Source: Candidatus Nomurabacteria bacterium (GTDB lineage Bacteria > Patescibacteriota > Patescibacteriia > HK-STAS-PATE-3). Taken from it: a stretch of 64,000 nt of DNA. The notes under the pieces were generated by a model. That model had not been told where the DNA came from, did not search any database, and saw only the letters and a program-made list of their open reading frames with translations. Shown here piece by piece: positions 1-28,661 of this stretch (positions are counted from its first letter, which is position 1; each line of letters starts with the position of its first letter). The translations under genes and the position numbers were made by a program. The stretch lies in assembly GCA_023898465.1 (NCBI GenBank), contig CP060223.1, positions 96,001 through 160,000 of the forward strand, given 5' to 3'.

Positions 1-2
1 TA

Positions 3-728
3 CTACGCCGCAAAGGCGTGGTCAGCATCGTGGTGTTATTGGCTCTGGCGATGAGCTACGGCGTGCTCTTAACTCAACCTTTTCTTTATCAGGCACGTGT
101 GGAGCTGCTTATTATTCAGCAGCAGTCAGAGAATCAAGATTTACTCTCTGCACTTCGCGCCACTGAACAGGTTGGTAAAGGCTTAGTTGATGTTATTAGC
201 ACCAGTTCATTCTTTGATAAGGTGCTGGCAACCGACTTTCCAATTACTGATGATTTCGGCACAAATCCGGAAGAGCGTCGCTTAGCTTGGCAAAAAACTG
301 CCCATGCATCTATTTCTCAGCAATCTGGAATCTTAACAGTCACCGTGCTGCACAAGAATAAAGAGCAGGCAGCGGTGATTGCCCGCGGCGTGGCGCAAGT
401 ACTTACCACCGAGAGTCAAGAGTTTCACGGTAAGGCAAATATCATTGTGAAGGTAGTAGATGATGTCTATACCAAGCAATGGCCTGTGCAACCAAACATT
501 CTTGGTACTACCGTAGCCGCGCTTTTCTTTGGCATCATTGCCGGTGTTGGAATTGTCGCCCTCCTTCCTTTGCCAAAAGCAAAAGAAGCCGCGCCAGCAA
601 TTCGTCGTACTGAAAATGATATGAGTGGAGCAGCGCCAAGTGCGCGAAAGACTTTGCATGAAATACGTATGAAGTCGACTCCGCCTCCGAGCCTACCGGG
701 CATCGATGAAGAGGAAGACGATCTCTAA
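3..728 (+). CDS. Polysaccharide chain-length determinant-like membrane protein (Wzz/CpsC-like). 5' end probably runs off the window, because the frame is open to nt 3.
   Basis: N-terminal TM followed by a PfLYqArveLLI motif typical of Wzz/CpsC, a long soluble segment, and a C-terminal TM (VAALFFGIIAGVGIVALLPLP). Reading frame is open from the window edge. GC is about 47%. Confidence 0.5.
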   Translation, partial: LRRKGVVSIVVLLALAMSYGVLLTQPFLYQARVELLIIQQQSENQDLLSALRATEQVGKGLVDVISTSSFFDKVLATDFPITDDFGTNPEERRLAWQKTAHASISQQSGILTVTVLHKNKEQAAVIARGVAQVLTTESQEFHGKANIIVKVVDDVYTKQWPVQPNILGTTVAALFFGIIAGVGIVALLPLPKAKEAAPAIRRTENDMSGAAPSARKTLHEIRMKSTPPPSLPGIDEEEDDL

Positions 729-19010: not shown

Positions 19011-20678
<1,668 letters not shown>

Positions 20679-20702
20679 TTTTGCTCTGACGAATTGAATA
20701 GA

Positions 20703-20740
20703 CATAGGCGAGGATGATCATCCTCGCCTATGTTGTATTT
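20703..20740 (+). terminator. Rho-independent terminator after groEL.
   Basis: 12 bp stem cataggcgagga/tcctcgcctatg followed by a T-rich tract. Confidence 0.65.
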
Positions 20741-20786
20741 ACTCCTTCAAGCACTTCACGCTATACTGCAAGTGAAGCGGGGAAGT

Positions 20787-21266
20787 ATGGAACAAGCAAC
20801 ATCACAAAATACATCCGAGCAAGAAGTCTACGTAGCTGGTCTACGTTTGAGTGATTATTGGCGTATGGCTAGATGGCCAGTAGCCGCCGCAACGCTTGTG
20901 AACGCGGCGCTTCTCGCTGCCCAGCAGCCCTGGCCTTATCTCTGGGGAATAAATGTCCTAAGCTTTCTAGGTTTAGCCTATTGGCTGCAGCTAAAAAAGC
21001 GTCTTACTTTTGGCAGCGCCAGTGCGATGGGAATTGTCGCTGGTCTCAGTTTAGGTTTCTTTGTTGCGATATTCCGCTTAGTGATTGAGCGACACGCCTA
21101 CCTCTTCTTCAATCTGATTACCGAGCCGCTACTCACCGCGGCTGGCGGCTTTCTTTTTTCTACGCTACTCTATAGTCTCTTACATCGGAAGCCAAAAAAA
21201 CCGGCCACCGATGTCAAAATGCGAAAGGAGGTGAAAACGAATGAGCGAACCAATGACCAAGAATAA
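20787..21266 (+). CDS. Hypothetical membrane protein.
   Basis: ATG after a GCGGGGA RBS. Several TM helices. The ORF start at 20730 overlaps the terminator, so I used the later ATG. Confidence 0.4.
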   Translation: MEQATSQNTSEQEVYVAGLRLSDYWRMARWPVAAATLVNAALLAAQQPWPYLWGINVLSFLGLAYWLQLKKRLTFGSASAMGIVAGLSLGFFVAIFRLVIERHAYLFFNLITEPLLTAAGGFLFSTLLYSLLHRKPKKPATDVKMRKEVKTNERTNDQE

Positions 21267-21540
21267 TAATGACGACCGACTGCTTGCTTTAGCTTCGTAT
21301 GTTTGGATACTCAGCGTGTTGATCTTATTGTTGAAGAAGGACAGTGACTTTGTACGTTTTCATGCGCGACAGGGTTTTGTTCTCTTTATTATCTCAGTAA
21401 TCTGCTCCATCTTGGCAATTTTCTGGTGGGTGAATCTTATTGTCGCCGTGATGGCGTTAATAGGTATGTACAAGGCCTACCAAGGCGAGAAATGGAAAAT
21501 GCCTTTAGTTGGCATGTTAGCAGAAAAAATAAATTTCTAA
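21241..21540 (+). CDS. Small membrane protein, DUF4870-like.
   Basis: Perfect RBS AAAGGAGGTG. LALASYVWILSVLILL...DFVRFHARQGFVLF pattern. Confidence 0.5.
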   Translation: MSEPMTKNNNDDRLLALASYVWILSVLILLLKKDSDFVRFHARQGFVLFIISVICSILAIFWWVNLIVAVMALIGMYKAYQGEKWKMPLVGMLAEKINF

Positions 21541-21687
21541 CCCAAGCTTTATCAAGGCAATCAGCGTCCTTATCGATTCTCTGTGTGCGTAGAATCGTTC
21601 GGGGCGCTTTGGGTTTGACTCCGTTGTTGCTCAAGCGATTTTCGCGTATACTAAGCATGTTTCTACTATTGAGATTATTAGGGGACT

Positions 21688-24099
21688 ATGGCACAACGCG
21701 CAAAAGAACACATCCTTTGGTTCAACCAGGTAAGTAATAAGGACGTAGGATTAGTTGGAGGCAAGAATGCAAGCTTGGGTGAAATGTATCGTCGTTTAAC
21801 CAAGAAGGGCGTGTATGTGCCAAATGGCTTCGCTATCACGGCTGAGGCCTACCAGCATTTTATTACCAAGGGCGGCATTAAGAAGGAAATTCGCCGCATT
21901 TTAAAGACCCTCAATACGCGAGATACTCGTAACTTGATGGCGCACGGTGAAAAAGTGCGTGCACTGTTACTAAAGACTCCAATGCCAGCTGACCTGGAGG
22001 AGGAGATTAAGCTAGCCTATGACAAGCTTTCGAAGGAGTTTGGGACGGCTAACGTGGATGTCGCCGTCCGTTCGTCGGCAACAGCTGAGGATTTGCCTGA
22101 TGCTTCTTTCGCTGGCCAACAAGAGACCTATTTGAATATTCGAGGTCATGAGGCTTTACTCGATGCCTGCCGCAAAGGTTTTGCCTCACTCTTCACTAAC
22201 CGTGCAATTTCTTATCGCGAAGATAAGGGCTTTGATCACTTCAAAATCTCCCTTTCCCTTGGCGTGCAAAAGATGGTCCGATCTGACTTGTCATCCTCTG
22301 GTGTGATGTTCTCGATTGATACCGAGTCTGGTTTCCGCGATGCTGTATTGGTCAGCGGTTCCTACGGTCTAGGTGAAAACATTGTCCAGGGCGCTGTGAC
22401 GCCAGATGAGTGGTATGTATTTAAGCCAACCCTAGCTCAAGGCTATCAGGCGATTATCTCCCGCAAGTTGGGCGATAAGAAGATTAAAATGATCTACACA
22501 AAGGATTTGAAAAATCCAACTAAGAATGTTCCTGTTCCAACGGTAGATCGTCCAAAATATTGTTTAACAGATAAAGAAGTCACGCAGTTGGCAAAGTGGG
22601 CCGTGCTCATTGAAAAGCACTATAAGAAGCCAATGGATATGGAGTGGGCTAAGGATGGTCAGACTGGTCAGCTCTATATTGTGCAGGCTCGACCGGAAAC
22701 GGTTATGAGTCAGCGTGATACCAGCGTGCTTGAGGAATACAGCATTGGCAAGCGTGGCCGTGTCCTAAGCGAAGGTACGAGCGTCGGCAGTAAGATCGGC
22801 GTGGGTAAAGTACGAGTCATTAAGGATGTTTCCCAAATTCACAGCTTCAAAGCCGGCGAGGTTTTGGTAACGCGCATGACAGATCCGGACTGGGAACCAA
22901 TTATGAAAATCGCCAGCGCGATTGTTACTGAAGAGGGTGGACGCACTTCGCACGCGGCAATTGTTTCTCGTGAGTTAGGTTTACCAGCTGTGGTTGGTAC
23001 AGGAAACGCCACCAAGAAGCTGAAGACCGGCCAAATGGTCACGATAAGCTGTGCGGAAGGTGAGCGTGGATATATTTACGCTGGCAAGCTTCCTTTCACG
23101 GTGAATACAACCAATTTGAAGAATCTCAAAAAGCCAAAGACCAAGATACAAATTATCTTTGGTACGCCGGAATTCGCCTTCCAGACCTCGCAGATTCCAA
23201 ACGATGGCGTGGGGTTGGCTCGTGAAGAAGTAATCACTGCTTCACACATTCAGGTCCACCCGCTTGCTTTGATTCACTTTGCGAAATTGAAGGACCAAGA
23301 GGCAAAGAAGAAAATTGAAGCGCTGACCGTAGGCTACGACAACAAGAAGCAATACTACGTTGATACTTTGGCGCAAGGTATTGCCATGATTGCGGCAGCC
23401 TTTTATCCCAAAGAAGTTATTCTACGTTTGGCTGACTTCCGATCAAACGAATATGCTGAGTTAATCGGTGGGCATGAATTTGAGCCGGAGGAGCGTAACC
23501 CGATGATTGGTTGGCGCGGCGCTTCCCGCTACTATGATCCAAAATACCGACCAGCCTTTGATCTGGAGTGTAAGGCAATTAAAAAAGTGCGTGATGAGAT
23601 GGGTCTGAAAAACCTCAAGATCATGGTGCCGTTCTGCCGTACCGTAGAAGAGGGTAAAAAGGTTATCGCTATTTTGAAGGAGAATGGCCTGGTCCAGCAC
23701 AAAGATGGTTTGGAAATCTTCGTCATGTGTGAAATTCCTTCCAACGTTGTTTTAGCTGATAAGTTTGCTGATATCTTTGATGGCTTCTCCATTGGTTCGA
23801 ACGACCTGACGCAGTTAACTCTAGGACTCGACCGTGACTCCGCCCTGATTGCGCACGTGGGGAATGAAAACAACGAGGCAGTGCATCGACTCCTCGCTCA
23901 GGTGATTGAAGTAGCGAAGCGCCGTAAGAAAAAGATCGGTATTTGCGGACAAGGTCCATCAGACTATCCGCAGCTAGCTCGCTTCCTGGTTGAGCAAGGT
24001 ATTGATGCGCTCTCGATTAACCCTGATACGGTTTTGAAGACCATGGTTGATATAACAAAGTTTGAGAAGCGCAAACGCGGGAAGCGCCGTAAGAAGTAA
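21688..24099 (+). CDS. ppsA: Phosphoenolpyruvate synthase (pyruvate, water dikinase).
   Basis: About 800 aa with N-terminal ATP-grasp, a central phospho-His swivelling domain, and a C-terminal PEP-utilising TIM domain (GGRTSHAAIVSRELGLPAVVG). Confidence 0.92.
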   Translation: MAQRAKEHILWFNQVSNKDVGLVGGKNASLGEMYRRLTKKGVYVPNGFAITAEAYQHFITKGGIKKEIRRILKTLNTRDTRNLMAHGEKVRALLLKTPMPADLEEEIKLAYDKLSKEFGTANVDVAVRSSATAEDLPDASFAGQQETYLNIRGHEALLDACRKGFASLFTNRAISYREDKGFDHFKISLSLGVQKMVRSDLSSSGVMFSIDTESGFRDAVLVSGSYGLGENIVQGAVTPDEWYVFKPTLAQGYQAIISRKLGDKKIKMIYTKDLKNPTKNVPVPTVDRPKYCLTDKEVTQLAKWAVLIEKHYKKPMDMEWAKDGQTGQLYIVQARPETVMSQRDTSVLEEYSIGKRGRVLSEGTSVGSKIGVGKVRVIKDVSQIHSFKAGEVLVTRMTDPDWEPIMKIASAIVTEEGGRTSHAAIVSRELGLPAVVGTGNATKKLKTGQMVTISCAEGERGYIYAGKLPFTVNTTNLKNLKKPKTKIQIIFGTPEFAFQTSQIPNDGVGLAREEVITASHIQVHPLALIHFAKLKDQEAKKKIEALTVGYDNKKQYYVDTLAQGIAMIAAAFYPKEVILRLADFRSNEYAELIGGHEFEPEERNPMIGWRGASRYYDPKYRPAFDLECKAIKKVRDEMGLKNLKIMVPFCRTVEEGKKVIAILKENGLVQHKDGLEIFVMCEIPSNVVLADKFADIFDGFSIGSNDLTQLTLGLDRDSALIAHVGNENNEAVHRLLAQVIEVAKRRKKKIGICGQGPSDYPQLARFLVEQGIDALSINPDTVLKTMVDITKFEKRKRGKRRKK

Positions 24100-24104
24100 G
24101 GGTT

Positions 24105-24809
24105 ATGCCAACTCAATCTGAACATATTCATGAGCGATACGGGGATGACTCGTATCGCTCAGTGGAATTACGAAACCCGGAAGAACTTCGAGAGTTTGCA
24201 TTAGCATTTCGTCAGTACTACGGTAAGTCTATAGCGGATGTGACACAGGAAGAGAAAGAGGTAGATGCTTTGACTGAGCGTTTACTTGAGCAGCAAAAGG
24301 ATTCGGCGGCGAGTGTGCGTTTCTATGGTATGCGATACGGCACGAAGTTGGTTGCTACTGGACGCTTAAAAGTGAGCACTGATCCAAGTACTGGAGAGCG
24401 AGTTGCTTTACTTTCGCATTTGTCAGTTGATCCAGATCATCGTGGCAAAAAAATAAGCACTCGATTAAGTGTTGAACGTATTGCAGAAGCGCAGCACCTA
24501 GGGGCAAGTCGTATCCTGGCTCATGTAGCGCAGCATAATGTTGCCTCACTAAGCTTGAAGCTGCGTGAAGGATTTCAGGTGACCGGATTTGTCTATTATG
24601 ATGCAGCGAAGCAGCACGGTCGTTTTGAGCTATCGCAAAACCTTCCCAGCAATAAGGCCGGCTCAGTTTCATTTGAACAACGTGAAGTGTTGCTGAGCGA
24701 CACAAAAACGCTTGATGAGCTATTACACTCGGACTGGGTGGGGATTGCGCTTAGGGGCACTAGAGAGGAACCAAGCCTGGAGATTCGCAAACATCTCTCT
24801 TCCCAATAG
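24105..24809 (+). CDS. GNAT-family acetyltransferase-like protein.
   Basis: LLSHLSVDPDHRGKKISTRL resembles GNAT motif A. Confidence 0.45.
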   Translation: MPTQSEHIHERYGDDSYRSVELRNPEELREFALAFRQYYGKSIADVTQEEKEVDALTERLLEQQKDSAASVRFYGMRYGTKLVATGRLKVSTDPSTGERVALLSHLSVDPDHRGKKISTRLSVERIAEAQHLGASRILAHVAQHNVASLSLKLREGFQVTGFVYYDAAKQHGRFELSQNLPSNKAGSVSFEQREVLLSDTKTLDELLHSDWVGIALRGTREEPSLEIRKHLSSQ

Positions 24810-24812
24810 ATA

Positions 24813-24902
24813 TGGCGGAGAGGGGGAGATTCGAACTCCCGAAGGGCTTTCACCCTTACTTGCTTTCCAAGCAAGCGCACTAGGCCACTATGCGACCTCT
24901 CC
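24813..24902 (-). tRNA. tRNA-Ser (anticodon GGA), class II with a long variable arm.
   Basis: Reverse complement GGAGAGGTCGCATAGTGGCCTAGTGCGCTTGCTTGGAAAGCAAG-TAAGGGTGAAAGCCCTTC-GGGAGTTCGAATCTCCCCCTCTCCGCCA. Anticodon loop TTGGAAA. Confidence 0.9.
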
Positions 24903-25207
24903 ACGAATTATTTTTTTCTTATCGTGCCGTTCAGTAAGGCGTGAAATTGCACACCGCCTTTGTATTTCTTTATTCTTAACTCTGCTTTTCGTGCCTCGCT
25001 CCTTGTTCCATACTTTTCCGCATATATTATTTCCAGGGAACTCCAGACTTCGTTGATCGAACACGAGACGCATTGTGCTCAATTATTCTTGTGGATATAT
25101 TTTCACAATGGCCTATATAATACCTTCCTGTTTTTTCGCTTTGTAGAATATATGTTATAAACATACATTTTGCTTTCTGCCGCGGAGCGGCATCCCGCCC
25201 CGCGGGA

Positions 25208-25242
25208 CAAGCAAGCGCACTAGGCCACTATGCGACCTCTCC
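25208..25242 (-). repeat. 35 nt direct copy of the 5' half of tRNA-Ser, a pseudo-tRNA fragment.
   Basis: caagcaagcgcactaggccactatgcgacctctcc is identical to 24868-24902. The match continues upstream (ttgctttc) across a 30 nt GC-rich hairpin insertion at 25178-25207. Confidence 0.8.
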
Positions 25243-25346
25243 AGGTTGCGTGATTTGTAACGGGACAATCCTAGCGAAAAATTACCTATTTGGCAAGGCG
25301 AAAATACAGAGTAAAATTCGACAAACAGGTCCCGCTCGGCTAGGAT

Positions 25347-25922
25347 ATGGATATGCGCGTAGAAGCAAGTCCAGAAACCCAGGTAGTAAAAAAGAAAAAA
25401 GGGAGCTGGCGGAAACTCGTCCTTTCGCTCTTTGTGTTGACCGCTCTAGTAGTAATCGTGCAGCAAGCTTTTGACACTTCCACATCCTCAAGCGAAACAG
25501 ACACTCAGGAGCAAAACGTCTTAGGTGAGAGTACGAGTCAACCCGAAAATACTGTTCGAGTACGTTTGAGTGAGGAAGAATTGAATAACCGTTTACAAGA
25601 ACAGATTGGACAGAGTAGTCAGGGAAATACTTTAGCTGATGCACATATAGAGATCCAAGACAGCCTCGGCATTTTACGTATGCGCTGGGAGGGAGGACAA
25701 ACTCTCGAAGCGCAAATTGTGGTAGGTGATTCTCAAAAGGAATTAGTTGTACGTAATGCGAGAGTTGAGGGTGCCGGAATTCTCAATAGCGTTTTTGAAA
25801 CGCTGGCCAAAAGTACGATTGATCAAGCATTGAAGATTATTACCAATAAGCAGGGAGATCGATTGGTTTCTCTGGCGATGGTGGATGGTGCACTTCACGC
25901 GTATTATCGCTTAGCACAATAA
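25347..25922 (+). CDS. Hypothetical membrane-anchored protein.
   Basis: Lys-rich N-terminus followed by a TM helix. Confidence 0.4.
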   Translation: MDMRVEASPETQVVKKKKGSWRKLVLSLFVLTALVVIVQQAFDTSTSSSETDTQEQNVLGESTSQPENTVRVRLSEEELNNRLQEQIGQSSQGNTLADAHIEIQDSLGILRMRWEGGQTLEAQIVVGDSQKELVVRNARVEGAGILNSVFETLAKSTIDQALKIITNKQGDRLVSLAMVDGALHAYYRLAQ

Positions 25923-26185
25923 TGCCTCGCACATTGCCGAAGGACGTGTTGCTAGAAATCCCCGGTGTAGGAAAAAGTATTGCAAAGGATTTACACGAAT
26001 TAAACATCCATAAGGTAGAAGATTTGCGCCGGCAAAACCCGGAACAACTTTATGAAAACCTGCAGCGTCAGCAAGGAGCGCCAATTGATCGTTGTATACT
26101 CTATGTATTTCGTTGTGCAGTGTATTACGCGAGTCATACTCGTCACGATGTAGAAAAATTGAAATGGTGGAATTGGAAAGATTAA
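25922..26185 (+). CDS. Helix-hairpin-helix protein, Cdd1-like (PF11731-type).
   Basis: LLEIPGVGKSIAKDL...NPEQLYENL pattern. Confidence 0.5.
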   Translation: MPRTLPKDVLLEIPGVGKSIAKDLHELNIHKVEDLRRQNPEQLYENLQRQQGAPIDRCILYVFRCAVYYASHTRHDVEKLKWWNWKD

Positions 26186-26189
26186 AAAT

Positions 26190-27395
26190 ATGTGGAAGCA
26201 TTCATTTATAGTTATCCTTACCTGCCTCTTCTTCCTTTTCGGTGTAGGTTTTGCAATACAAACTTCTACCTTTAACGCCCCAGATGAGCGAGGGCATTAT
26301 TTATATGTGCAATACGTGCATGAGACCGGGTTATTGCCGGTGCTCTCGGCTGATTCACCAAATAAGGAGGCGCATCAACCACCCTTGTACTATTGGCTGA
26401 GTCAGCCAGTCTTTTCTTTGACCCAGCATTGGTCAGAGCGGGCGCAGGTACTAGCACTTCGTTTTTGGTCGCTTATACTCAGTAGTGGTGTGGTCTTGCT
26501 GACCTATGCGGCAATTCGCCGACTCCTCCCAACCCGTCGACTCCTTGCCTACCTCGCCACGGTTTTTGTGGCCCTAAATCCTCAGTTTCTTTTCATGAGC
26601 AGCGTGATTAATAATGATGCGCTCACAAATCTTCTGGGTGCAGCATGGGTCTTTGCCATTGTTTTTCTTTTTACGCGACAAAGTGTTTTATTAAAAAAAT
26701 CTACCAATGTTTGGATGGTGCTTTTAGCTGCGGCAATGTTTCTCACAAAAGCATCACTCTGGCCATTAGTCGCGCTTCTTGGTCTTGTGCATTTTTTCCG
26801 AGTGCCCATCTCAGAGCGTAAACGTGTAGCGTTGTATTGGATACCCGCCCTTCTGATTATGCTTTGGTGGCTGACTCGAAATACTCTTATCTACGGTGAT
26901 CCGACGGTACATCAAGTGCAGCATGATTTGTGGTATGCTGAGCAGCATCGAAATTTTCTTAGCCCTTCAGGTGTATGGCAGTGGCTAGTTACCCTGGTTG
27001 AAAGTTTTTGGGCGAGATTTGCCTATTTTAATATTGCCCTGCCTGGGATTTTTTATCTTTTTATCAAGCTAGGTCTCATGATGGGGGCGATTGGTTTTCT
27101 GCGCTACACCTTCCAGCATTGGAGTGAAAAATGGCAGCCTCGAATGCAAGCGATCTGGATACTTTGTTTGGGCGCGCTGAGTGTTTTTGTCGGTGTGTTC
27201 TGGTATAGCTTGAGTTTTTATCAGCCACAAGGGCGTTATCTCTTTGCTGTCCTGCCCGTTTTTAGTGCGCTGCTTAGTCTGGGTCTCCTGGTATGGTTGC
27301 CAAAAAAACTTCAATGGTTAGTATTTGCTCTTATCGTTGTTGCTCTCGTCCTGGCTGATGTGAAGAGCTATGCATTGCTCAGTAAGTACGGATAA
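26190..27395 (+). CDS. Membrane glycosyltransferase, GT39/GT83-like (PMT/ArnT family).
   Basis: Multi-TM protein. NAPDERGHYLYVQYV...PPLYYWL matches the family's conserved N-terminal loop. Confidence 0.6.
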   Translation: MWKHSFIVILTCLFFLFGVGFAIQTSTFNAPDERGHYLYVQYVHETGLLPVLSADSPNKEAHQPPLYYWLSQPVFSLTQHWSERAQVLALRFWSLILSSGVVLLTYAAIRRLLPTRRLLAYLATVFVALNPQFLFMSSVINNDALTNLLGAAWVFAIVFLFTRQSVLLKKSTNVWMVLLAAAMFLTKASLWPLVALLGLVHFFRVPISERKRVALYWIPALLIMLWWLTRNTLIYGDPTVHQVQHDLWYAEQHRNFLSPSGVWQWLVTLVESFWARFAYFNIALPGIFYLFIKLGLMMGAIGFLRYTFQHWSEKWQPRMQAIWILCLGALSVFVGVFWYSLSFYQPQGRYLFAVLPVFSALLSLGLLVWLPKKLQWLVFALIVVALVLADVKSYALLSKYG

Positions 27396-27525
27396 ACTTC
27401 GAAACCTCAATACCGAAATACTAAGCAAATTCTAAATAAGAACTTCAAAATACGCCAAATTACTTTGGGAAGCATGTTTAGATATAGTTTTTGTTTCGAG
27501 ATTCGAACTTAGAATTTAGGAATTA

Positions 27526-28661
27526 TTATTCGCATTCCGGATCGTCGTAGCGATGTACGATTCCATGAATAACTTGTCCCAGCATGAGTAGGCTAAGTGC
27601 GAGAAGGAAGAAAGTGGCACCAAGTCGTGGAGCAAAAGTTCCTACGAGGATAATAAGCAGTGCGCCACCAAAGCGAATGCCGCGATCGCTTTTTTTATGC
27701 TCAACATCGTGTTGGTCAGGCACCAGAGTCAGCTCTAGTAAGCCATTAAAGAGGAGAGTAATAGCTGCTCCGCCACAGAGGAGCCATATGATTTCGCTGC
27801 GCAGGAGATTAGCCCCATTTGCAATGATGGCTAACATGGCAGCTCCAATTGCGCCAGTGCCGATATGCAAGGGCAAATGTCCATAGCCCCAAGCTGCCTT
27901 AACCCATTCGTTCTGTCTCACTCGGCGTACCGGTATGGTATTGAAGTAGAGCCACCATAATCCAAATGCGAGTAACATTCCTAGACCGCCAATGAGGAGA
28001 GAGTGAGTAGTCATAACAGGAAGGTCAGCAATTTTTTCTGCTGTTGCGATAATGGTCTCACCTAGGACAATAATCACTAATAAACCAAAACGTTCAGGTA
28101 GATGAGAGTTGCTGAAGCGTGGAAGCTTGCTTTGCTCTCCAAAGGTAAGCGCTGGAGTAAACAGGTCGATAGCGAGTCCAAGTCCTCGTAATATAAGTTG
28201 GAGTGGGGCTGGGACAAAGAGTGAAATGGTCCACAGGATAACTGAGGTGCTGAAGCCAATGGAATAGATACCGGTAGTTTTTCGGATTTCTGGATTATGA
28301 TATCCGCCCCGTATCCAAAGGAAGATGAGTACAAGTCGGGCAAGAATATATGAGACCCCGAAGCCAAATGCGGTACTATCGAGTCCATCGCGTGCAAATA
28401 TTGCCAATCCAGCGATCGGCAGCATCATCAGGAAGGTCAGGAGCTTGTGACTCACATCGTCTGTCTCAAAGCGATCGTTGTAGAGCGTGTGTCCAATCCA
28501 AACCCACCAGATTGGGATAAAGAGTAAAACAAAGCGAAGTACGCCGCTCCAGTCTGGCTGGTCAGCGAGAGCATGGATAAGCTCTCTGATTGCCGCAACA
28601 AAAACAAGGTCAAAAAATAGCTCTAATCACGTTGCTCGACGCTCTTGATTTTCATCTTCAT
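27526..28661 (-). pseudogene. ltrA: Low-temperature-requirement LtrA-family membrane protein gene with an apparent 1-nt frameshift near its 5' end.
   Basis: The long frame LELFFDLVFVAAI...FIPIWWVWIGHTLYNDRFETDD...ERFGLLVIIVLGE carries LtrA signatures. It has no in-frame start before an upstream TGA at 28627-28629. The predicted N-terminus MKMKIKSVEQRD sits in the -1 frame starting at 28661. Confidence 0.55.

Follow-up and report, generated by a model that had tools for sequence, protein, structure and literature searches.

The locus considered here lies in a stretch of 64 kb from a Candidatus Nomurabacteria bacterium, hereafter called the window, and holds a gene for tRNA-Ser(GGA). On the minus strand, the intact gene is preceded by a partial copy of itself (the stub), a GC-rich double hairpin and a short, disrupted gene for a GIY-YIG nuclease, and a promoter-like site lies upstream of the stub (Table 1). 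The identity of these parts can be assigned with near certainty. As argued below, the locus is probably a small selfish cassette that restores the tRNA gene it has invaded. Loci in other assemblies are referred to by L numbers.

Table 1. Features of the tRNA-Ser(GGA) locus (window coordinates)
Feature	Position	Strand	Basis or remark
Intact tRNA-Ser(GGA)	24813..24902	minus	ARAGORN; Rfam RF00005, 56.1 bits, E 1e-10
GIY-YIG nuclease gene (Slx1-like, catalytic domain only), 85 codons, disrupted	24908..25164	minus	Translation, tblastn, Pfam
Short 5' untranslated region	25165..25177	minus	Includes 25177 to 25170 (GAAAGCAA)
GC-rich nested palindrome (double hairpin)	25178..25207	minus	Folds; family-wide covariation
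Displaced partial tRNA-Ser(GGA) copy (stub), nt -1..34	25208..25243	minus	Exact 36-nt repeat
Promoter-like site TTGCCA, 17 nt, TAGGAT	25268..25296	minus	Consensus scan; ~25 nt upstream of the stub

The stub is a direct repeat of 24868-24903 at a spacing of 340 nucleotides (nt), with 100% identity over 36 nt, i.e., positions -1 to 34 of the tRNA. It comprises the 5' strand of the acceptor stem, the D arm, the 5' strand of the anticodon stem and the anticodon loop up to G34. By our own arithmetic, the chance expectation for an exact repeat of this length in 64 kb is ~1e-12. An earlier note, made from the sequence alone, had recognized a partial 5' copy of the tRNA upstream of the intact gene, which the repeat search bears out, although it gave the repeat as 35 nt and missed the base at position -1. 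Along the minus strand, the upstream copy begins with tRNA nt -1 to 34 (25243 to 25208). These are followed by the 30-nt insert TCCCGCGGGGCGGGATGCCGCTCCGCGGCA, which lies between G34 and G35 of the tRNA (25207 to 25178) exactly where the note had placed it, and GAAAGCAA, which corresponds to tRNA nt 35-42, followed by unrelated sequence. The spacer between the two copies measures 266 nt.

This spacer had been taken for non-coding, but translation of the minus strand yields an 85-aa GIY-YIG protein in two frames. A three-frame translation gives MFITYILQSEKTGRYYIGHCENISTRIIEHNASRVRSTKSGVPWK followed by a stop codon and, in the next frame, IIYAEKYGTRSEARKAELRIKKYKGGVQFHALLNGTIRKK followed by a stop codon. 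The first part runs from an ATG at 25164 to K45 and is followed by TAA at 25029-25027, and the second part, in the shifted frame, ends with TAA at 24910-24908, 5 nt before the tRNA. With tblastn, two high-scoring segment pairs in different frames were obtained (25164-25030 and 25033-24911), and alignment with intact homologues revealed a 1-nt deletion at about 25030-25033, just after TGG. This single-base deletion splits the open reading frame (ORF), which is thus not intact in the window. The window nuclease is either a decaying copy, late in the life cycle of a homing gene, or the result of an assembly indel.

The Pfam profile for GIY-YIG (PF01541) matches the repaired window ORF with an E value of 1.3e-12 (48.3 bits, cut-off 22.6) and the intact ORF of the related locus L068 with 6.6e-15. 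The profile spans residues 1-68 of the 85, and the catalytic set Y5, Y16, G18, R26, H30 and E50 does not vary among 13 members of the family, one of which is the window copy. In the family proteins, which measure 81-94 aa, no DNA-binding module was found, and no other Pfam domain of any kind scores above cut-off. A sub-threshold match to T5orf172 (PF10544; 19.4 bits vs. a cut-off of 20) overlaps the GIY-YIG residues, and NCBIfam gave nothing above threshold, its sole match being a group I intron endonuclease family at 18 bits vs. a cut-off of 56. The sole sequence match in the PDB is 1ZG2 (E 0.0018), a structure placed among the minimal stand-alone bacterial proteins of the Slx1 family (Dunin-Horkawicz et al.; PMC1564403).

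In the window, the two hairpins of the insert are TCCCGC-GGG-GCGGGA and TGCCGC-TCC-GCGGCA, and the family consensus reads CCACCGCC-NNN-GGCGGGG-TCCCGCC-NNN-GGCGGGA. The insert is unique within the window (0 of 100 shuffles match), where it is also the only spot with two adjacent 6-bp GC hairpins, and a dispersed repeat was rejected given this single occurrence. Two folds of similar energy are available to it, a single hairpin of 11 bp and a pair of hairpins of 6 bp each. Both models were tested for covariation against 500 shuffles on 26 distinct gapless 35-mers, the selection of which is considered below. For the two-hairpin model, 33 cells had changed on both sides with pairing kept, vs. 9.4 in the shuffles, none of which reached 33, and the signal vanishes when the partners are shifted by one to three columns. 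The model with one long hairpin gave 9 such cells vs. 6.6, a value attained by 110 of the 500 shuffles. The 11-bp GC stem described in the earlier note is therefore a fold that competes energetically in each sequence, but it shows no covariation and was rejected; the insert appears better described as a conserved pair of 6-bp hairpins. RNAalifold, run on a MAFFT alignment of hairpins of unequal length, had produced the central helix alone, which is an alignment artefact, and was replaced by the explicit test of the two models.

The hairpins and the adjoining GAAAGC are almost invariant across the window, L068, L124 and L221, whereas the third positions of the ORF codons vary freely. Since the hairpins are more conserved than the ORF, they appear to be a constrained cis element, located at the left border of the cassette. 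GAAAGC(A) is kept in these loci and in L045 although their anticodon stems differ and, because it persists where the host anticodon stem is different (L124, L221 and L045), it belongs to the cassette and not to the host tRNA. The hairpins are covered by no Rfam family: at E<=10, a search over 23500-26500 returned the tRNA and chance matches only. An intrinsic terminator was considered and rejected, since the hairpins are not followed by a run of T and the tRNA downstream lacks a promoter-like site.

Two further observations concern the hairpins. An ATG located within them (GGGATGCC) shares the reading frame of the ORF in L068 and L221, where it is used by gene callers; the start that gene callers assign to protein P0005 is MPLRGRKHNIK. 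Since its frame differs from that of the ORF in the window and in L124, this ATG is probably not the real start. In the D-loop class of loci (L183, L178, L191 and L218), the hairpins form a near-perfect overall palindrome, the reverse complement of which matches the same motif, with a bulged A in hairpin 1 and a bulged T in hairpin 2. With a two-fold symmetry of this kind, the element would be suited to a dimeric DNA-binding protein or to the extrusion of a cruciform.

The surroundings of the stub indicate which of the two copies occupies the original site. In the relative L001, the protein encoded by the neighboring gene is 76% identical, and this gene and the conserved upstream flank directly adjoin the 5' end of the tRNA. 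Because this flank is the same as that abutting the stub in the window, the stub, and not the intact gene, is at the ancestral position of the tRNA. A consensus scan of the minus strand over 24600-25500 found the TTGCCA/TAGGAT site as the sole promoter-like site, so none belongs to the downstream intact tRNA itself, and both hexamers are kept in L001. As a match to the consensus only, it is weak evidence; the site is probably the original tRNA promoter, which would now drive the stub, the ORF and the tRNA. The neighboring 191-aa protein of the window is 100% identical, with 99% of the query aligned, to a hypothetical protein encoded on a 1.08-Mb contig of a Candidatus Nomurabacteria metagenome-assembled genome. 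This match came from a homology search, exact-sequence look-ups of the two proteins that flank the locus having given no result. The contig of L001 (Logan SRR32105342) ends exactly 30 nt into the 5' half of the tRNA (L001:1-30), where a k=31 assembly graph would stop if this half were repeated in that genome too. The contigs of L002 and L003, which come from the species of the window, also end shortly before the stub.

The arrangement is recurrent. A 28-mer from the 5' half of the tRNA, used to scan one genome per species, yielded at least 120 loci. Among the matches listed, window-like paired copies were present in two, L068 (358 nt) and L113 (325 nt), and the closest relative was L068, with the same gene order and with phosphoenolpyruvate (PEP) synthase 78% and GroEL 85% identical. 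L068 carries the same stub, an insert that differs at two bases, and GAAAGCA, followed by a GIY-YIG ORF of 85 aa and the tRNA, both intact. L124/L139 and L221 have the same layout and the same type of insert, and L113 has the same layout and the same 34/35 site with a different GC hairpin sequence. In L010, L125, L135, L136 and others, the architecture is retained with the breaks in the D loop or elsewhere. The common order is a partial copy of the tRNA 5' part, a GC double hairpin, a few resumed tRNA bases, a GIY-YIG ORF and an intact tRNA. With tblastn, GIY-YIG homologues were found beside tRNA-Ser in about a dozen of the at least 120 loci listed, all from the Candidate Phyla Radiation (CPR), and a single metagenome scan with a 13-sequence alignment of the nuclease as the query gave 313 relatives.

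The anatomy of 80 of these loci, with 82 distinct ORF copies, was examined. In 64 of the 82, the ORF is followed on the same strand by a tRNA gene, mostly starting -9 to +27 nt from the last aligned codon; at least six of the remaining 18 copies are upstream members of tandem arrays. The tRNAs concerned are mainly those for Ser (four anticodons) and Tyr, and some are for Gly, Pro, Thr, Trp or Ala. Upstream, most ORFs have a partial 5' copy of the same tRNA, which ends near nt 8-16, 20-31 or 35-38 and is followed in most loci by GC hairpins and 6-12 bases of resumed tRNA sequence, after which a short leader extends to the ATG; the hairpins are ~20 nt upstream of the start codon. Breakpoints are concentrated in three loops of the tRNA (D, anticodon and T), a distribution that hints at where cuts may occur. 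Phage collections contained two weak matches in 50,697 records, and IMG/VR two distant loci; given this near absence, a phage origin of the family was rejected.

The ORF often ends on the D-loop TAG of the tRNA, which gives the protein the C-terminus ...GEVA, and in these cases the protein gene and the tRNA gene share bases on the same strand. An overlap of 15 nt of this kind, ending on the TAG of GCATAGTGG, is present in L113, L010, L005 and L062 and in more than 20 metagenome loci (e.g., L144, L147 and L149).

In many CPR genomes, tRNA-Ser(GGA) has PEP synthase in its vicinity, which allows different states of the site to be compared. Next to PEP synthase, the tRNA locus is occupied in the window, L068, L124, L010 and L052; L045 is a remnant, in which the stub, the double hairpin and GAAAGCA are kept and the ORF is lost; and L013, L042, L118, L015, L111 and L069 are empty, i.e., they have a plain tRNA with an AT-rich leader. 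Thus, occupied and empty versions both exist among related genomes. The comparison spans species or higher taxa, and, since the gene orientation differs in some genomes, neighborhoods rather than strictly orthologous sites are compared. The possibility raised in the earlier note that the window shows simply a conserved region upstream of the tRNA was hereby checked and does not hold: relatives have the cassette, a remnant without the ORF, or the plain tRNA.

Variant forms were found as well. In mirror forms (L203, L213, L161 and L173), a few bases of tRNA sequence lie downstream of the ORF and the intact tRNA, and after them come a double hairpin, again located at 34/35, and a 3' half that has been displaced, and in L052 and L208 a 5' stub and a 3' stub occur together. 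Tandem arrays are exemplified by L211, with two identical units of 311 nt and one truncated unit, and by L153 and L171, with two units each that are ~85% identical, one of them being interrupted by a stop codon. A single degenerate copy is present in L141. The nuclease of the window is 73% identical to that of L124 and 62% to that of L068, vs. 66.5% and 78%, respectively, for PEP synthase, which weakly suggests, on 85 residues only, a mild incongruence between the nuclease tree and PEP synthase. In L045 (JAYUIJ010000070.1, ~300 nt on either side of tRNA-Ser) and in L052 (260-1100), there are, in addition, "graveyards" of tRNA-Ser fragments, with 5' and 3' pieces that each have GC hairpins in the D, anticodon or T loop (e.g., GGTTC, hairpins, GAATCC).

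We propose, with a probability of about 0.7, that the locus is a small selfish, target-restoring cassette in the tRNA-Ser(GGA) gene of Candidatus Nomurabacteria, and the member of the cassette family that the window holds is probably decaying. The cassette would consist of the GC double hairpin, the short leader, the 85-aa GIY-YIG gene and a copy of the 5' part of the tRNA. Its insertion between positions 34 and 35 would strand the resident 5' part (nt -1..34) upstream, beside the old promoter and capped by the hairpins, and the 5' part brought in by the cassette would join the resident 3' part, thus regenerating an intact tRNA, so that the host would lose nothing. The intact gene is the functional one, regenerated or retained downstream of the cassette. 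The old promoter may transcribe the stub, the hairpins, the nuclease mRNA and the tRNA as one RNA, from which RNase P would release the tRNA. Among the explanations offered in the earlier note, a relic of an insertion into the anticodon loop came closest to this proposal, although the nuclease gene had been missed.

As to its spread, we infer from the sequences that the nuclease would break an uninterrupted tRNA gene in a loop region and that the break would be repaired with an occupied allele as the template, in the manner of intronless homing via synthesis-dependent strand annealing. The left end would pair with the stub, and the hairpins, the ORF and the 5' part of the tRNA would be copied; annealing of the new strand, now containing tRNA nt 35 onwards, to the right end would then produce the 5'-stub form seen in the window. 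Further copying, or a start from the other end, might generate the mirror forms with a 3' stub and the forms with both stubs, and re-cutting of the regenerated tRNA could produce tandem arrays. This specific strand-annealing pathway is put forward tentatively. Campbell-type integration of a minicircle by recombination in the 5' segment of the tRNA would give the same end product.

Several points weigh against this proposal. The regenerated tRNA is identical to the tRNAs of the empty sites L013, L015, L111 and L069 over the 5' half and the anticodon arm. Hence, the target is not destroyed or mutated there, and the classical immunity of the occupied allele is missing, unlike in classical homing elements, although the hairpins do interrupt the stub. 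A chromosome with an active copy should consequently be re-cut, which fits with the tandem arrays and leaves the cost to the host unexplained. Since the 85-aa protein has no DNA-binding domain, sequence-specific cleavage by the protein alone is not expected. Perhaps, as may be speculated from the breakpoints in tRNA loops, the Slx1-like fold family and the lack of such a module, a DNA structure is recognized. Furthermore, in L052, L045 and L221, the stub differs from the 5' half of the downstream tRNA; simple one-step homing fails as a full account of these stubs, which need either co-conversion of the whole tRNA or carriage of the stub. The window, L068 and L124 have neighboring genes in common, and their cassettes could be vertically inherited, and a presence/absence polymorphism within one species was not found. 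Finally, the 35-mers used for the covariation test had been preselected by the motif of the first hairpin and by at least six of seven pairs in the second, which inflates the pairing and may also inflate the covariation.

The resemblance to Slx1-like proteins and the shared neighborhood could be read differently, i.e., as the signs of a domesticated module that benefits the host. The nuclease would then be a vertically inherited repair or RNA-metabolism factor, co-transcribed with certain tRNAs, the stub and hairpins would form a leader that regulates or stabilizes the transcript, and the duplications would stem from local recombination and not from mobility. The synteny of the window, L068 and L124 is compatible with vertical descent, and the strong conservation of the hairpins so close to the start codon and the virtual absence of the family from phage collections also fit with this explanation. 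The stand-alone GIY-YIG proteins of the Slx1 family and UPF0213 (1ZG2 and 1YWL) agree with the cassette nuclease in size and domain content, although the sequence similarity is weak, and they have been described as vertically inherited, with a predicted role in repair (PMC1564403). That paper mentions neither a linkage to tRNA genes nor a duplicated target or a hairpin element. A host-beneficial module is difficult to reconcile with the patchy distribution and the empty sites in relatives, with copies that are pseudogenized or have lost the ORF (the window; L045, L141 and L153), with tandem arrays and displaced 3' halves, and with the use of many different tRNAs at different breakpoints, the stub sometimes being derived from another type of tRNA than the neighboring gene. 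We therefore consider domestication unlikely.

Alternatively, the stub and the double hairpin might be a working cofactor of the 85-aa nuclease rather than a scar. In an RNA version, the target-matching 5' segment, with the hairpins as a scaffold, could steer the nuclease to tRNA genes, a layout analogous to the guide-plus-scaffold RNAs that are encoded at transposon ends. In a DNA version, the nested palindrome and the tRNA gene, which can form a cloverleaf, could be structure-specific substrates of the Slx1-like enzyme. If true, a cofactor role would explain why the stub is identical to the live tRNA while the ORF diverges, why the breakpoints are in loops and how one protein family can serve many tRNAs. 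We regard this as quite improbable.

A larger element that had been integrated at the anticodon loop by an integrase and was mostly deleted afterwards, or a decayed tandem duplication of the tRNA, is very improbable. It is true that tRNA genes are common targets of integrases and that an integration event produces direct repeats, one a complete copy of the gene and the other a partial one (PMC9897764). However, when a tyrosine or serine recombinase was sought with Pfam in eight ORFs (19029-28455), none was found; the families identified were GroEL, PEP synthase, GNAT, Cdd1, DUF2142 and LtrA. Moreover, the duplicated part is the 5' part and not the 3' part, and the spacer holds one complete small gene with the same borders in dozens of loci. 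The opinion in the earlier note that this is not an attachment-site remnant of an integrase is thus upheld. The decayed duplication that it had suggested instead is to be rejected, because a conserved foreign gene separates the copies, and the 100% identity of the stub to the gene also argues against decay.

Also raised there was an assembly artefact, i.e., a collapsed or chimeric join at the repeated tRNA sequence, the chance of which is practically negligible. Short-read contigs of the same or related organisms do break nearby (L002 and L003), L001 stops as a k=31 graph would at a repeat, and the 1-nt deletion follows TGG at the start of an A-run (TGG-AAAT), a typical place for long-read indels. 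Yet, a genuine 36-nt repeat would itself cause such contig breaks, and the same architecture, with a homologous insert and ORF, has been found in no fewer than five independent assemblies, which stem from different studies and assemblers and include L068, L124/L139, L113 and L221. A group I intron was rejected, as no Rfam intron family matched at E<=10 over 23500-26500 and only 8 nt of tRNA follow the insert, and so was a split or bulge-helix-bulge intron tRNA, as the window has no 3' half other than that of the intact gene and the organism is bacterial; the bulge-helix-bulge motif was not formally searched.

Of the systems known, intronless homing by free-standing GIY-YIG genes seems, by analogy, the closest to the behavior proposed for the selfish cassette. 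The SegB, SegF and SegG genes of T-even phages share the GIY-YIG domain with the cassette and, like the cassette nuclease gene, are located between host genes beside the presumed target and not in an intron; the segB gene is found in the tRNA gene cluster of phage T4. Their spread by double-strand-break repair with co-conversion of the flanks is the mechanism that is suggested here for the cassette. However, the Seg proteins are more than twice as long as the cassette nuclease and have DNA-binding domains, whereas the latter is a bare catalytic domain of 81-90 aa with an Slx1-like protein as its nearest structure. Whilst SegB is a homing endonuclease of phages (PMC13096335) and the Seg genes are phage genes, the cassette family resides in CPR chromosomes and is essentially absent from phage collections. 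Also, Seg elements, unlike the cassette, are not known to leave a partial target copy behind, with a conserved double hairpin as its cap.

This last feature has a parallel in mitochondria. In the atp6 gene of Allomyces, a mobile endonuclease ORF reportedly brings along a duplicate of part of the invaded gene, and our literature search showed that partial gene duplications beside free-standing GIY-YIG genes are widely reported in mitogenomes. In these fungal and chytrid elements, as in the cassette, a replacement piece of the target keeps the gene intact, and the resident piece is displaced as a pseudo-fragment. Short GC-rich double hairpins also occur in mitochondria, and PMC2800124, citing Paquin, Laforest & Lang 2000, considers them mobile and not removed from transcripts. 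The differences are that the mitochondrial ORFs target protein-coding genes, usually at their 3' ends, in organelles, whereas the cassette targets a tRNA gene, usually duplicates the 5' part and is found in bacterial chromosomes, and that its double hairpin has a fixed place inside the displaced fragment, unlike in the mitochondrial elements.

Elements with a tyrosine integrase resemble the cassette in having a tRNA gene as the target, in bringing a piece of the tRNA that restores it and in having a partial copy at the other end. Williams is said to have concluded in 2002 that the anticodon loop can be the crossover site. The cassette differs from these elements in the absence of an integrase, in its size (~300 nt and not kilobases), in the part that is usually duplicated, i.e., the 5' part, and in the hairpins at the junction. 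The gene-restoring piece and the partial copy that marks the other end are described for tRNA-targeting integrative elements in PMC9897764. Group I introns have been found in tRNA genes of Patescibacteria at position 35/36 (PMC13011429), i.e., in the same phylum and at nearly the same position of the anticodon loop as the cassette; GIY-YIG and tRNA-Ser are not mentioned in that paper. In contrast to these introns, the cassette has no ribozyme, only 30 nt separate the tRNA pieces, and the interrupted copy lacks the 3' half and is not spliceable into a tRNA.

The full-text literature that was searched contains no description of a cassette family composed of a tRNA stub, hairpins and a GIY-YIG gene, which does not prove novelty. 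If the proposal of a selfish, target-restoring cassette is correct, CPR/Patescibacteria host abundant and apparently undescribed selfish cassettes of ~300 nt, which colonize and rebuild tRNA genes. They would explain puzzling tRNA fragments and annotations as "GIY-YIG nuclease family protein" in CPR genomes, and tRNA-gene predictors and pseudogene filters should account for them. The nuclease would be a minimal one, consisting of the catalytic domain only, with its target chosen by other means than a conventional DNA-binding domain, e.g., via DNA structure, a partner or an RNA, and the cassette would be a compact natural example of a mobile gene that invades a gene both essential and ultra-conserved without cost to the host. 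The likeness to mitochondrial endonuclease ORFs and GC double hairpins suggests a convergent or shared strategy in organelles and reduced bacteria.

Some other members of the family deserve mention. In the P0008/P0010 subfamily (L125:2290-2800; L138:1160-1620), the duplication reaches ~45-60 nt upstream of the tRNA and includes the leader. In L125, a strong promoter-like sequence, TTGCTT-16-TATAAT, was noticed by eye upstream of the stub copy only. The contigs of L136 and L138, which encode an identical protein, differ by an indel in hairpin 1 that preserves the hairpin. Furthermore, a distant GIY-YIG subfamily, ~31-46% identical to the proteins of L068 and the window and with N-termini MYYVY... 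or MWYFY..., is located downstream of tRNA-Ser (L008:1640-1940, L091:7160-7500, L020:6790-7060 and a second ORF, downstream of the tRNA, in L005). In L008 and L091, GC hairpins precede the ORF, and in L008 no tRNA follows it. Perhaps this subfamily represents a sister lineage in which the 3' side is used.

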